In this document: positions 2,753-35,523 of the stretch, one piece after another | Position numbering within the stretch: the stretch's first letter is position 1 | Layout of the letters: each line of letters starts with the position of its first letter | Origin: a virus | Reading direction: 5' to 3' (one strand) | Length of the DNA: 64,000 nucleotides | IMG/VR virus record: IMGVR_UViG_3300032032_000001 | Location: 84,365 to 148,364 of that record | Notes under the pieces: generated by a model | Told to the model about the DNA's origin: nothing | The model's input: only the letters and a program-made list of their open reading frames with translations | Databases searched by the model: none | Translations under genes and position numbers: made by a program

Positions 2753-3313
2753 ATGCCTTACATCATCAAAGCATTAATTGGCGGTCGAAGAGACCCGCTA
2801 CACAAGCCCAAAAAGGGCGGTAGGCATTTGTCCCCTGCCTCTCGACGCGCATATGGGCGCTTGACAATTGGGAACAGAACTATCAAACGCGGAAAACAGA
2901 TTTCCGTAAGTGACGATGTCTATGATCAATTTAAGACTAAGATTGACGCACTCGCTGAGAGCGGAATCATTGCTCTTACCAAGACAGGTCACACTAAGGA
3001 TGGGTGGAAACAAGAACAGCTCCACGCACCAGCGCCCCCTGCTCACGCCCCTGAGCCACCCGCTCCAGAGGTTAAAGAAGAAGAGCCTACACGGGGTGTA
3101 ATTGAAATCGATATGTCTCCAGCTGACGAGCCAGTAGAGGAGCCCGTTGTTGTGGCTGCCCCTGAGCCGGAGCCAGAAGAGCCGAAGGCCGAAGAGCCCG
3201 CCCCAAATAAGCGTGCATCTAAGAAGGTATTGGCTAAGGAAGACAAAACTGAAGAGGCACCTGCCGAAAAGCCAAAGAGACGTGGTCGAAGAAAAAGCAA
3301 GAAGGATGACTAA
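2753..3313 (+). CDS. Virion-associated protein with Pro/Glu/Lys-rich tail
   Basis: GGAGG SD before ATG 2753; small globular domain plus low-complexity tail. Confidence 0.55.
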   Translation: MPYIIKALIGGRRDPLHKPKKGGRHLSPASRRAYGRLTIGNRTIKRGKQISVSDDVYDQFKTKIDALAESGIIALTKTGHTKDGWKQEQLHAPAPPAHAPEPPAPEVKEEEPTRGVIEIDMSPADEPVEEPVVVAAPEPEPEEPKAEEPAPNKRASKKVLAKEDKTEEAPAEKPKRRGRRKSKKDD

Positions 3314-28131: not shown

Positions 28132-29526
28132 TTATCTATCCTCTCCGTCCCACACAGCCATGTGTAGTCCGTACACGTCAATAGAGCCTAGGTGGCTCGG
28201 TGGTCCCGACCGCCTTCTTCTCTGCTCTTTTTTCTCTACCCTGGCTCCACGAATCTCTTCAAGAAGAGACCGAGCCTGGGCCACAGACATAATGAATGTG
28301 CTTACGTTTTCATGGGTATTTCGAACTTCATCGAGCATACACTCGATCTCTACGTCACTCAGGTAGTTCACAAAACTTAACACTCCACAGAACCTTTTGC
28401 TCACCCTCGTCCAGGGTGAATACACGGACTCCGTTGTTATCAACAGACACCGAAAGTTCTCTGTTGTTGTTAGCTGATCTATTAGGAAGGATGTCTACAC
28501 GTCTACTGTCGTGGGCTTCCCCACTCTCTCCAAGATACACGGTAAGGTTCTTTTCGAGTTCGGCAGTCATTTGTGATCTCCAATCAATTATGTAGGTCAA
28601 CAGCTACGAGCCATTGCTGGCTTGGCTTTTCCTCACACCTTGTGTCAATGCCGGTTCGCCAACAGCAATGCTCTTGGCCATCAAGCAATGGCGTATCGAA
28701 AGTGTATCTCCCCATAGCGAGATCACACAAGTTCTTCATGTAATAAGCAGCCATGGATTCATCACCAAGTGACTGGATGTCCCTCGGAACCCGCTCCCAC
28801 TCCATAAGTCTACTGAACGCCATACCGAAGTTTTTATTACTTTCAGTTACGCGCTTCGCGTATTCTTCCTTATCCTGGACAGGGAACCCTAGCGGCCCGG
28901 TGTCATCTACGTCTTCGGCATGGATAGCGTTACCCATAACCTTGTCCCTACAGTCTTTGTACGAAGCGTCCATGCGCTCGTACGCTTGCTCTATGGTTTT
29001 GTTCCATAGCTCTGGGTCATCTTCGTACTTGAGGACATTCTTACCACCGAGGATTCCATCCCAGCGTCCCCCAATGGCGTACCAATCCCAGCACTGCCCA
29101 TCACCGTATGGCTCAAGGGCACCCTCTGCGGCCATGATGGCCTCTTCTTCTGTTTCCGCCTCTACGGCGATAAAGTGTACGGTATGCATAAGCAACCTCC
29201 TTATTAGGTTTCTAGTCGTCATTTTCTTCTGTTAATTCTTTTGGCTCTATGCCGTTATTCACAATAACATCGACTTCGTTCTGTGTCTCGATCCATAGTC
29301 GAGCGCCGCAGCTTAGGGGCTTGTGTGGGCGATATATAACCCTCGCAGCCTCCTCCCCGTCTTGCCCGTAGATCACAGCTTCATGGCCGTAGTCGTTGCT
29401 TTTGTATGTTTTCACCGTTATCACGGGCTCAGCACCACAACCGTCAGATTTTATGTTTCTGCGGATAGCGTGCTGGTTAACATGTATAACTGTTTTCATA
29501 TAGACTCCCCCTAACCAAAGTGGCAC
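28132..29526 (-). CDS. Run of small hypothetical phage genes (28132-28443, 28355-28600, 28584-29222, 29212-29526)
   Basis: Co-oriented overlapping ORFs; WDWYAIGGRW and IHVNQHAIRRN...CGAR are motifs common in phage proteins. Confidence 0.55.
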
Positions 29527-29597
29527 CCCCTGGAGGATTCGAACCTCCGACCCTCGGCTTAGAAGGCCGATGCTCTATCCAGCTGAGCTAAGGGGGC
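29521..29597 (-). tRNA. tRNA-Arg(UCU)
   Basis: Cloverleaf GCCCCCT...TCGGC-CTTCTAA-GCCGA...TTCGAAT...GCCA. Confidence 0.95.
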
Positions 29598-31448: not shown

Positions 31449-31524
31449 TGGTGGGCCGCCTGGGACTTGAACCCAGAACCTGCGGATTAAAAGTCCGATG
31501 CTCTACCTGTTGAGCTAACGGCCC
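31449..31524 (-). tRNA. tRNA-Lys(UUU)
   Basis: Cloverleaf with CGGA-CTTTTAA-TCCG, encoded CCA. Confidence 0.95.
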
Positions 31525-31537
31525 TGTACAAGTTAGG

Positions 31538-31623
31538 TGGTGGGGCTGGAGGGACTCGAACCCTCAATCCCATAGGGCGTCAGATTTTAAGTCTGATGCG
31601 TATACCAATTCCGCCACAGCCCC
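31538..31623 (-). tRNA. tRNA-Leu(UAA)
   Basis: TCAGA-CTTAAAA-TCTGA, long variable arm, encoded CCA. Confidence 0.95.
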
Positions 31624-32033: not shown

Positions 32034-32130
32034 TGGTACGCCCGGTGGGACTCGAACCCACGACCTTGCGCTTATCAGGCGCTAATACGAGGTATAAGCT
32101 CGCTGCTCTAACCAACTGAGCTACGGGCGC
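32034..32130 (-). tRNA. Atypical 97-nt tRNA-Ile with two anticodon-like arms (UAU and GAU)
   Basis: Canonical acceptor, D and T arms, A73 plus CCA; GCGAG-CTTATAC-CTCGT then GCGC-CTGATAA-GCGC. Confidence 0.85.
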
Positions 32131-33543: not shown

Positions 33544-35523
33544 CTAAATGACACAGGTGTCCCCATCACAAAACTTTTCGGTAACCTCATGCCTTGAATT
33601 GCTGAAGTCAATGTCGGTTGTTTGTGATGTCATAGTTTCATATTGATCTTTTGTGATCTCAATATACGGAGCCTGGACGTACCCATGGTCACCATCCATC
33701 AAAGGAAGAAGAGACACAGACTTTAGCCTAGTCTCATAAATCTCTAGACATGTCTTAATGTCCTGAGACTCATCTTTCTTAAACGTCACAGTGATGCTTA
33801 CCTGATTGTCGGCCCAATGCTTCTGAAGGTCCCCCGCGTTCGCGAACTGCTCCCAGATGGTTACATCAGACTTACCCTTTTGGTAGTGCTCTTCTTTAAC
33901 CGGGAAGCTGATACATGATGTGTCCGACGCGTAAGCGTCTTTCTCAACAAGGTACCCAGCCTTCGCCGCAGCGTCTACAAGCGGCGACGTGTTCGCCACC
34001 CGAATATTTCTTATGTAATACTCGCTGTGTGGGTAGTGAATTCCCGGACTTGCGCCACACAGAAGACTAACCGTACCACTAGGCTTAACGCTCGTGACCT
34101 TGATTGATCTGGGGATACATAACCACTCGCTATACATCCTATCCAGATCTCGTATAAATCCATACCCGGAGTCGCACCACTTAAGGAACTCTCTCCGACC
34201 ATGCTTGTTCATCGCTTGGACGATGCCACTCATAGAACACCCGATTCTCCGATTCCGCATCATTACAGCGTTTGTTCTAGGATCGTGTGTGGGAAGCAGC
34301 GTAACCGTTTTGGCGTACAGGTACGCAAACTTGAGGGTTCTCTGGTAGTCTTCAAGATCCTCATGGTGCGCGGGAAAGGTTTCAACAAGACAACAAAGCT
34401 CGAAGGACTCAAGCGTCTGTTCCGAGCAAGGGTTGCTACCCATAGCTCTAACATCGTAGTTGTTCTTGTTTCCGTCCATTCTTCGGTAGTGCTGCATGTT
34501 ATCCAACCAGATAACCCCAGGCTCCCCGTTCACAGCAATCGACTCGGCAATCGACTCGTAGTCCATCCCGATATGCCCGAACACGGAGTTGTTTGAGGCC
34601 CACCGGCGGTCACGAAGAGCTTCCTCGTCCTGCTTCAGGGTCACAAACTCTTGGTCAGTCGCTTCCCCAAACATGATCTCAGCAGTTCTACGGATACCAC
34701 CACTTACGACGCACTTACCTACAAAGTTGAAAATATCAACAATGACCGAGCTTGTAATCTTATAAGACTCCCCATTCCTAGGCATCAGGAGTGCGGACAG
34801 GTTATCTACCAGATCCACCAACGGCTGCGGGCCAGAGGCCACACCGCCGAACCCGTTGATCTTAGCCCCACGGGGCCTGACCTTAGAGTAGTCGATATTC
34901 TTTGGGTAGTAGCCTTTTCCAACGAAGCTATAAAGAATCACTTTAGCAAGCTCAACCCAACCCTCCCTTGAATCATCCACAACGTAGGGCTCGTCGGAAA
35001 ACCGAGGCACCTGTATTCTAACCTTACCAGCGCCCTTACAGTCACCACCGACACCCACTCCCAGCATGGACATGTCCATAAGGAATGTGAACGGCGCAGC
35101 AAAGTCTACGTCAATTTCTTCCGTGCTAACGAAAGCACAGTTATTTAGTGCGGCTGACCCCTTGGTCATCACCATATCTGTTCCCATGACCCACAGGCCC
35201 CTTCCGGGCGGGAGCCACTTAAATCCCCACATGCGCTCAAACATCTCCTGGGCGCTCTTCTGAGCCTTGGGCTCATTCCATGGAAGCCGCAAAGACCTAC
35301 AGTGTAATTTCTGGACGTTATACACGCCCTCGACTACTCTCTTACATGTTTGCCAGAACTCTTCAGTGCCCCCTTCTTCAAGAGGCCTTGCATATGTACG
35401 TTTGAATGTGAAATAACCCAGAGGGCCCCATTTGGGCTGCTCCCCCATGTAGTCCTCAATAAAAGATGAACTGAGGGTGAAAATTCTCACCTTCCTCTCA
35501 TCAGGCTGCTGATTAAATACCAT
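33544..35523 (-). CDS. nrdJ: Class II (adenosylcobalamin-dependent) ribonucleotide reductase
   Basis: RTYAR, LPPGRGLW, LNNCAF, NPCSEQ...LCCL, TSVKPSGTVS, C-terminal FCDGDTC. Confidence 0.92.
   Translation of the reverse strand: MVFNQQPDERKVRIFTLSSSFIEDYMGEQPKWGPLGYFTFKRTYARPLEEGGTEEFWQTCKRVVEGVYNVQKLHCRSLRLPWNEPKAQKSAQEMFERMWGFKWLPPGRGLWVMGTDMVMTKGSAALNNCAFVSTEEIDVDFAAPFTFLMDMSMLGVGVGGDCKGAGKVRIQVPRFSDEPYVVDDSREGWVELAKVILYSFVGKGYYPKNIDYSKVRPRGAKINGFGGVASGPQPLVDLVDNLSALLMPRNGESYKITSSVIVDIFNFVGKCVVSGGIRRTAEIMFGEATDQEFVTLKQDEEALRDRRWASNNSVFGHIGMDYESIAESIAVNGEPGVIWLDNMQHYRRMDGNKNNYDVRAMGSNPCSEQTLESFELCCLVETFPAHHEDLEDYQRTLKFAYLYAKTVTLLPTHDPRTNAVMMRNRRIGCSMSGIVQAMNKHGRREFLKWCDSGYGFIRDLDRMYSEWLCIPRSIKVTSVKPSGTVSLLCGASPGIHYPHSEYYIRNIRVANTSPLVDAAAKAGYLVEKDAYASDTSCISFPVKEEHYQKGKSDVTIWEQFANAGDLQKHWADNQVSITVTFKKDESQDIKTCLEIYETRLKSVSLLPLMDGDHGYVQAPYIEITKDQYETMTSQTTDIDFSNSRHEVTEKFCDGDTCVI

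Follow-up and report, generated by a model that had tools for sequence, protein, structure and literature searches.

The window analysed here, the whole stretch of 64,000 nucleotides, carries on its minus strand at 32034-32130 a genuine isoleucine tRNA with two anticodon-type arms (Table 1). ARAGORN calls a 97-nt tRNA-Ile(tat) at this place, and the gene matches the full Rfam tRNA model (RF00005, positions 1-71) with 63.6 bits against a gathering score of 29. The elements that make a tRNA of that model are present, namely a 7-bp acceptor stem, a D arm with GG, a 7-nt anticodon loop and a T arm with UUCGA. In the Rfam alignment 20-21 nt are inserted between the anticodon arm and the variable loop; a preliminary description of the window gives the gene as 21 nt longer than a standard tRNA. 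That description had also parsed the minus strand into two tandem arms, arm 1 following the D arm and arm 2 preceding AGGUC, each with a 7-nt loop and an isoleucine anticodon. The sequence reads exactly as parsed, with ARAGORN and Rfam in agreement: arm 1 abuts A26, arm 2 stands before an intact AGGUC, and the two loops are CUUAUAC and CUGAUAA.

Table 1. Coordinates in the window of the two-armed tRNA gene, its parts and the neighbouring tRNA genes
Feature	Position	Strand	Remarks
tRNA-Ile(UAU), whole 97-nt gene	32034..32130	-	encoded CCA at 32036-32034, discriminator A at 32037; ARAGORN and Rfam RF00005
Acceptor stem, 5' strand	32124..32130	-	pairs with 32038-32044; G1.U72 wobble; Ile2-type signature G3-C70, C4-G69, C5-G68
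D arm, GCUC / 9-nt loop with GG / GAGC	32105..32121	-	followed by A26 at 32104; UA between acceptor stem and D arm
Arm 1, GCGAG-CUUAUAC-CUCGU, 5-bp stem, 7-nt loop	32087..32103	-	anticodon UAU at 32096-32094; likely decoding arm
Inter-arm linker AUUA, 4 nt	32083..32086	-	from the sequence
Arm 2, GCGC-CUGAUAA-GCGC, 4-bp stem, 7-nt loop	32068..32082	-	GAU at 32076-32074; mimic of the tRNA-Ile(GAU) anticodon arm
Spacer A and intact 5-nt variable loop AGGUC (positions 44-48)	32062..32067	-	from the sequence
T arm, GUGGG / UUCGAGU / CCCAC	32045..32061	-	from the sequence and the Rfam tRNA model
tRNA-Leu(UAA)	31538..31623	-	next tRNA downstream of Ile(UAU); ARAGORN
tRNA-Lys(UUU)	31449..31524	-	ARAGORN
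tRNA-Arg(UCU)	29521..29597	-	ARAGORN

The usual tertiary-contact nucleotides are all in place, including the AGGUC on the 3' side of arm 2, and the five-arm cloverleaf has a free energy of -36.1 kcal/mol compared with -36.2 for the minimum free energy fold. A26 runs directly into arm 1, and arm 2 leads into A44, an arrangement to be considered again below.

The genome from which the window derives is a single 148-kb phage contig with a GC content of 50% and only four tRNAs. The three besides Ile(UAU) read A-ending codons, as had been claimed, and a tRNA scan of the 148-kb contig found no tRNA-Ile(GAU). AUA accounts for 21% of the isoleucine codons of the phage, or 11.4 per 1000 codons, and three AUA sites in the phage ribonucleotide reductase (RNR) align to isoleucine in 77% of homologue residues, in a test that is small and partly circular. 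INPHARED contains no phage closely related to this one; matches to its RNR and AAA-ATPase scatter over various hosts, and the ORFs neighbouring the tRNA are largely orphans. The RNR, a class II (B12-dependent) enzyme encoded at 33544-35523 (-) of the window, has hundreds of close marine metagenomic relatives, in whose neighbourhoods AcrVA2-like, DUF7417 and ThiF genes occur. Homologues of 75-84% identity lie on contigs of 150-180 kb, some of them in Tara Oceans assemblies.

Such RNR relatives allow the tRNA cluster to be followed through the lineage. Two contigs (L447 and L448) with an RNR 78% identical to that of the window have a syntenic cluster of Ile(UAU, 96 nt), Leu UAA, Lys UUU and Arg UCU. 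In L447 arm 2 and the AUUA linker are unchanged, while compensatory changes have converted C2-G71 of the acceptor stem to G2-C71 and a G-C pair of arm 1 to A-U. Two other contigs (L449 and L443) instead carry a CAU tRNA with A3-U70, C4-G69 and C5-G68. An acceptor signature of the A3-U70 or G3-C70 type, together with C4-G69 and C5-G68, corresponds to the published discriminators of tRNA-Ile2 (PMC1635315). A further contig (L451) has an Ile2-like CAU tRNA plus a standard 76-nt UAU tRNA, which agrees with the five-arm body in its acceptor and T arms and has A38 in its loop. Judged from these sequences, the role of AUA reader in this marine phage lineage is filled by a five-arm UAU tRNA, by tRNA-Ile2(CAU) or by a standard 76-nt UAU tRNA. 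Because of this series and the Ile2 signature, the five-arm tRNA itself fills that role, with an Ile2-type body to which an Ile1-type anticodon arm is appended. A standard UAU tRNA with the same body exists in a sister phage, and the extra arm is therefore not strictly required. The tRNA-Ile2(CAU) genes of sister phages also suggest that the host of the window phage possesses TilS.

The design extends well beyond this lineage. BLAST recovers 93-nt tRNA-Ile(UAU) genes in Vibrio phages V6Aob and henriette 12B8, and pattern scans added further homologues from IMG/VR, from metagenomes and from a GTDB set with one genome for each species. In all, 39 distinct full-length five-arm sequences were assembled from phage contigs, cultured Vibrio phages, metagenomes and bacterial chromosomes, and aligned with the window tRNA as a gap-free first row (alignment A1). 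The patterns fixed GAGCA, GGTC and TTCGA, so that divergent members and exceptions are under-sampled. The window tRNA fits the resulting family, which combines a UAU arm 1, a linker of 0-4 nt, an arm 2 of 3-4 bp with an NNGAUNN loop, and AGGUC; its close relatives are L253 and L447, both with an identical AUUA linker. The family falls into two types. Type I has a 7-nt D loop and a 3-bp arm 2 with a C(A/C)GAUAA loop. Type II, that of the window, has a D loop of 8-9 nt and a 4-bp arm 2 with mostly a CUGAUAA loop. The shortest members have their two 17-nt arms in exact tandem.

Covariation of both anticodon-type stems among homologues had been proposed as a check on the two-armed structure, and alignment A1 provides it. 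Paired cells amount to 96%, and every helix except the D stem, which is invariant in 39/39, displays double compensatory changes. All seven pairs of the acceptor stem covary; arm 1 has double changes at three stem pairs, and arm 2 at all four, its stems including GCGC/GCGC, GUGC/GCAC, GUGU/ACAC, GAGG/CCUC, CAA/UUG, ACC/GGU and others. The observed covariation scores were reached by none of 500 shuffles, and slid controls also stayed far below them. RNAalifold predicts the same five helices unaided, the arm-2 hairpin among them. The homologues keep both loops rather than one. Chance and an assembly chimera are excluded, since dozens of independent assemblies and cultured isolates share the design with compensatory changes in both arms. 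Two conserved elements coincide with what the search patterns required: UAU, found in 39/39 (with U33 of arm 1 in 38/39), and the invariant GGUC of the variable loop. A G1.U72 wobble closes the acceptor stem in 21/39 members (alignment columns 1 and 93), including those of the window, Actinomyces and Alphaproteobacteria, and may be relevant to the handling of the 3' end by isoleucyl-tRNA synthetase (IleRS). Phage-like contigs with type II five-arm tRNAs also contain tmRNA genes (L253:8632-9004 and L008:13746-14052).

The loop of arm 2 occurs as CUGAUAA, CAGAUAA, CCGAUAA, CUGAUAU, UAGAUAG, CUGAUUA and UUGAUAA, and over the 39 distinct sequences only G34, A35 and U36 are invariant, whereas positions 32, 33, 37 and 38 vary. 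Arm 2 is not generally a decoding loop, most members having A or C at position 33. The restriction of invariance to GAU speaks for mimicry of the GAU anticodon, as opposed to an AUA pseudo-codon that pairs with arm 1. A kissing interaction of AUA(A) in arm 2 with UAU in arm 1 was considered and rejected, as A37 and A38 of arm 2 vary and G34 does not. The two arms are also tied to each other. When the scans required UAU and left the extra arm free, the matching bacterial-type long UAU tRNAs all showed GAU; when a GAUA loop was required and arm 1 left free, UAU appeared in all 33 bacterial genes and in all viral ones. Most phage tRNA(UAU) genes sampled (107/116) are of standard length.

Several unusual genes surfaced beside the five-arm family. 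Two IMG/VR contigs (L045 and L137) encode 87-nt tRNA(UAU) with other long variable regions that have no clear 7-nt GAU loop. IMG/VR contig 3300010885_031220 (L166), with a match at 2884-2941 (-), carries a 94-nt tRNA-like gene of different topology, in which CUUAU and AGAUA lie in one multiloop flanking a 6-bp hairpin and closed by a single 5-bp stem. An 85-nt phage tRNA-Ile(GAU) at L216:11551-11635 (-) has an extra hairpin, GCC-UUU-GGC, in its variable region, and the same contig holds a five-arm Ile(UAU) with the arm-2 loop CUGAUUA. Finally, nine loci (L295, L297, L305, L306, L315, L326, L329, L340 and L345) from Acidimicrobiales, Patescibacteria, Planctomycetota and Rubrobacteraceae consist of the 3' half of tRNA-Ile(GAU), from the anticodon arm through AGGUC and the T arm to the 3' strand of the acceptor stem. 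ARAGORN makes no call at these loci, nor is an ordinary 5' half present up to 26 nt upstream; their 5' parts may be rearranged or interrupted.

AUA is the single sense codon that bacteria are normally unable to read without an essential modification enzyme, TilS. The preliminary description had proposed that the tRNA could decode AUA without TilS. Twenty of the bacterial matches are chromosomal five-arm genes, of which 19 stand in records labelled Actinomyces (among them A. oris, A. naeslundii, A. viscosus, A. johnsonii and A. timonensis) and the remaining one in a metagenome-assembled genome labelled Tannerella. The Actinomyces gene is nearly identical to that of the window; the twenty genes share arm 1 with the window and have an arm 2 of GUGC-CUGAUAA-GCAC. 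The order Ile(UAU)-then-Leu(UAA) is common to the window phage and the Actinomyces chromosomes; tRNA-Leu(UAA) was nevertheless rejected as a sign of its joint transfer with Ile(UAU) from Actinomyces, as the sequences are not close. Searches of plasmids returned ordinary Arg and Ile(GAU) tRNAs and no copy of the five-arm tRNA.

The TilS model TIGR02432 has no match in three named Actinomyces genomes with the five-arm gene, while all of 14 control genomes match, 10 of them above the cut-off. In a sample of 151 genomes of the same GTDB family, 143 have a TilS match and seven have the five-arm gene, six of these by the strict pattern and one by covariance model R1. All seven are without a real TilS, one having just a 3e-5 match, and the strict pattern finds the gene in none of the 142 genomes of that GTDB family with a TilS match. 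Two TilS proteins of TilS-positive members, compared with four five-arm genomes, gave nothing significant (best E 0.002, over 54 residues). A single clade, and with it a single evolutionary event, probably lies behind the anti-correlation, and the counts are for this reason not independent. The complete 3.22-Mb genome G083 illustrates the situation: among its 51 tRNAs are one Ile(GAU), one five-arm Ile(UAU) and two CAU genes only, for initiator and elongator Met, so that tRNA-Ile2(CAU) is absent and the five-arm tRNA is the only candidate reader of AUA, a codon that is rare but used (0.87 per 1000). The Ile2-like CAU tRNA of the GTDB family has a full-length match in most of the other genomes listed and only weak matches (E about 1e-9) in the seven five-arm genomes, although matches are also weak in a few others.

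Actinomyces genomes that have the five-arm tRNA and neither TilS nor tRNA-Ile2(CAU) support the view that the tRNA does without this enzyme. The association is not general, as seven Alphaproteobacteria with type I five-arm genes do have TilS; in one of them the gene sits among ordinary housekeeping genes of the chromosome. Two genomes with neither a TilS match nor the five-arm gene (G099 and G132) were rejected as clean counter-examples. G132, from the GTDB family of A. oris, contains a 60-residue C-terminal remnant of TilS (G132:C1:377567-377749) that is 93% identical to the TilS of a neighbour, and retains an Ile2-like tRNA(CAU) (L410:1501-1575), which points to recent loss of TilS or to an assembly fault; G099 has an 80% match to the same Ile2-like CAU tRNA.

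What arm 2 contributes is suggested by the manner in which isoleucine tRNAs are charged. The IleRS of E. coli prefers LAU over UAU by 360-fold in kcat/Km (PMC3575796), and IleRS2 reads G34 by way of a dedicated ARD3 pocket, in which the R964A change abolishes charging (PMC13752280). An anticodon with U34 would be a poor substrate. In the mechanism proposed, arm 1 would decode AUA through its UAU, with no need of lysidine and hence of TilS. The body is that of the minor isoleucine tRNA (Ile2), whereas arm 2 would have been kept as a copy of the stem-loop with which the major tRNA-Ile(GAU) shows its anticodon. By presenting G34, A35 and U36 to IleRS, arm 2 would enable the tRNA to be charged with isoleucine despite its U34 anticodon. 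The invariant GAU of arm 2 is exactly the anticodon that IleRS reads, and this supports recognition by the synthetase. A functional phage tRNA-Ile in which arm 1 reads AUA and arm 2 serves IleRS as a GAU identity handle, without lysidine, is the likeliest of the readings considered, with the scales about level.

Geometry is where this mechanism is weakest. The anticodon pocket of IleRS lies beyond the reach of an arm of 3-4 bp that emerges at 43/44, short of a swap of the arms or a flexible junction. The stacking position under the D stem could be taken by either arm, by arm 2 in contact with the synthetase and by arm 1 on the ribosome; the symmetric junction, A26 running into arm 1 and arm 2 into A44, would permit such an exchange. 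That decoding and identity are divided in this way between the arms, the ribosome reading UAU and IleRS reading GAU, probably by arm swap, is offered tentatively, as somewhat short of an even prospect. The synthetase of Actinomyces is of type 2, and in IleRS2 of the five-arm Actinomyces the G34 pocket still has its R, K and L, with one change of Q to M. Remodelling of IleRS was on this account rejected. Retention of the pocket is in itself uninformative, because the Actinomyces IleRS must still charge tRNA-Ile(GAU). An IleRS2 also occurs in TilS-less Bifidobacterium, for whose tRNA the available part of the report (PMC3575796) mentions no extra arm.

Selection on arm 2 is clear, and the data do not by themselves point to its partner. 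The arm could be kept for a partner other than IleRS, whether the t6A37 machinery, an Ile T-box leader or the ribosome, on which it might tune the distinction of AUA from AUG, or it could simply stabilise the fold. The standard-length UAU tRNA of the sister phage implies that charging may not need arm 2, and C38 of arm 1, present in 37/39 five-arm members and in 15/97 standard UAU tRNAs, hints at specialisation for decoding fidelity. Yet a loop that holds G34, A35 and U36 invariant while A37 and A38 vary suits a reader of anticodons better than a t6A enzyme or a structural role, which makes such a function unlikely, if by no means fanciful. Both anticodons might also work on the ribosome, arm 1 for AUA and arm 2 for AUC and AUU. 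The window subtype, with its perfect CU-GAU-AA loop and U33, in a phage that has no separate tRNA-Ile(GAU), would lend itself to this; however, arm 2 in most members has A33 or C33 on a stem of only 3 bp, and a normal tRNA-Ile(GAU) accompanies the gene in many phage arrays and in Actinomyces genomes, so that double decoding is quite improbable.

The preliminary description had further suggested a decoy for anticodon nucleases, and enrichment of the design in phages, which carry tRNAs generally, would accord with arm 2 as a decoy or shield against such a nuclease of the host or another defence. This idea fared poorly. The tRNA is an ordinary chromosomal gene in Alphaproteobacteria, with housekeeping genes around it, and in Actinomyces, where one clade has no other candidate for reading AUA; a nuclease with specificity for tRNA-Ile(GAU) was not found, and the neighbouring window ORFs that were scanned include no tRNA-repair genes. 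A decoy is very unlikely. Hardly better placed is intron-like removal of the extra hairpin after transcription to leave a tRNA of 76-77 nt. ARAGORN and Infernal do score the hairpin as an insertion, but it is located at 43/44 instead of 37/38, has no bulge-helix-bulge and falls far short of the length of a group I intron; real intron-bearing UAU tRNAs in giant-virus contigs look different, and an excised segment would have no need of an invariant GAU. Excision is accordingly given little credence. The exactly tandem 17-nt arms of the shortest members might recall a neutral relic of tandem duplication of the anticodon arm, or else a pseudogene or assembly artefact. Covariation contradicts this, through the compensatory changes of the arm-2 stem beside an invariant GAU, as do the presence of the gene in phages, in Actinomycetota and in Alphaproteobacteria and its place, in complete genomes, as sole candidate for reading AUA; a relic is scarcely believable.

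Should IleRS indeed recognise the tRNA by arm 2, tRNA identity would gain a new principle, that of a spare anticodon for recognition. It would be the first natural instance of a tRNA with the triplet that reads the codon on one arm and the triplet that is read by the synthetase on another, and would account for the ability of Actinomyces to live without TilS. A single gene would provide modification-free reading of AUA to phages and to the TilS-less Actinomyces clade, and the AUA reader of a phage would work with or without modification by the host. The arrangement would also offer a template for orthogonal tRNAs, of which the anticodon could be changed while charging is kept.

Full-text searches of the literature, including the most recent IleRS and TilS papers, found no description of the five-arm design, and comparison with known tRNAs sets it apart in several respects. 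Introns in the tRNA-Ile(UAU) genes of eukaryotes and giant viruses are inserted after position 37 and spliced out. Giant-virus genes of this sort surfaced in the same pattern scans and share with the window gene the UAU anticodon and the added length, but the insertion in the window tRNA is a separate plain hairpin at 43/44 and belongs to bacteria and phages. Membership among intron-bearing tRNAs was rejected on the position and shape of the insertion. The class II tRNAs (Leu, Ser and Tyr) likewise have an extra helix between the anticodon and T arms. Their variable arm ends 1-2 nt before the T stem and has a loop of 3-5 nt, and ribosomes tolerate such arms. In contrast, the window tRNA keeps the full AGGUC on the 3' side of the arm, has a 7-nt loop of anticodon type and an Ile2-like body, as can be seen by comparison with tRNA-Leu of the same window. 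The nev-tRNA-Ile(UAU) of nematodes and allo-tRNA(UAU) combine a long arm with a UAU anticodon, on bodies of Leu or Ser type that are charged with Leu or Ser (PMC3333845, PMC4300185, PMC5389517, PMC7609411). Allo-tRNAs have an acceptor/T geometry of 8/4 or 9/3, unlike the 7/5 of the window tRNA with its Ile2-like body and GAU in the extra loop. Assignment to class II, allo-tRNA or nev-tRNA was rejected on geometry and body.

The nearest counterparts are the tRNAs that read AUA. With tRNA-Ile2(CAU), the partner of TilS, the window tRNA has in common the task of reading AUA, the signature G3-C70, C4-G69 and C5-G68, A26 and, in sister phages, the same place in the cluster; it differs in having UAU for CAU, no need of lysidine and an extra arm. 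A TilS-independent tRNA-Ile2(UAU) has been described from Mycoplasma mobile, and also from Bifidobacterium and Neorickettsia (Taniguchi et al. 2013, PMC3575796). The M. mobile tRNA resembles the five-arm tRNA in using a UAU of the unmodified type for AUA in a tRNA-Ile body, in a genome that lacks TilS as the Actinomyces genomes do. The joint absence of tilS and tRNA-Ile2(CAU) that goes with the M. mobile type holds for the Actinomyces homologues but not for the seven Alphaproteobacteria, in which TilS is present. The M. mobile system pairs a four-arm tRNA of about 76 nt with an adapted IleRS (Arg865, a change of the Trp-to-Arg type for U34), whereas Actinomyces IleRS2 keeps R, K and L in its G34 pocket and the window tRNA, at 97 nt, adds a GAU arm of its own.
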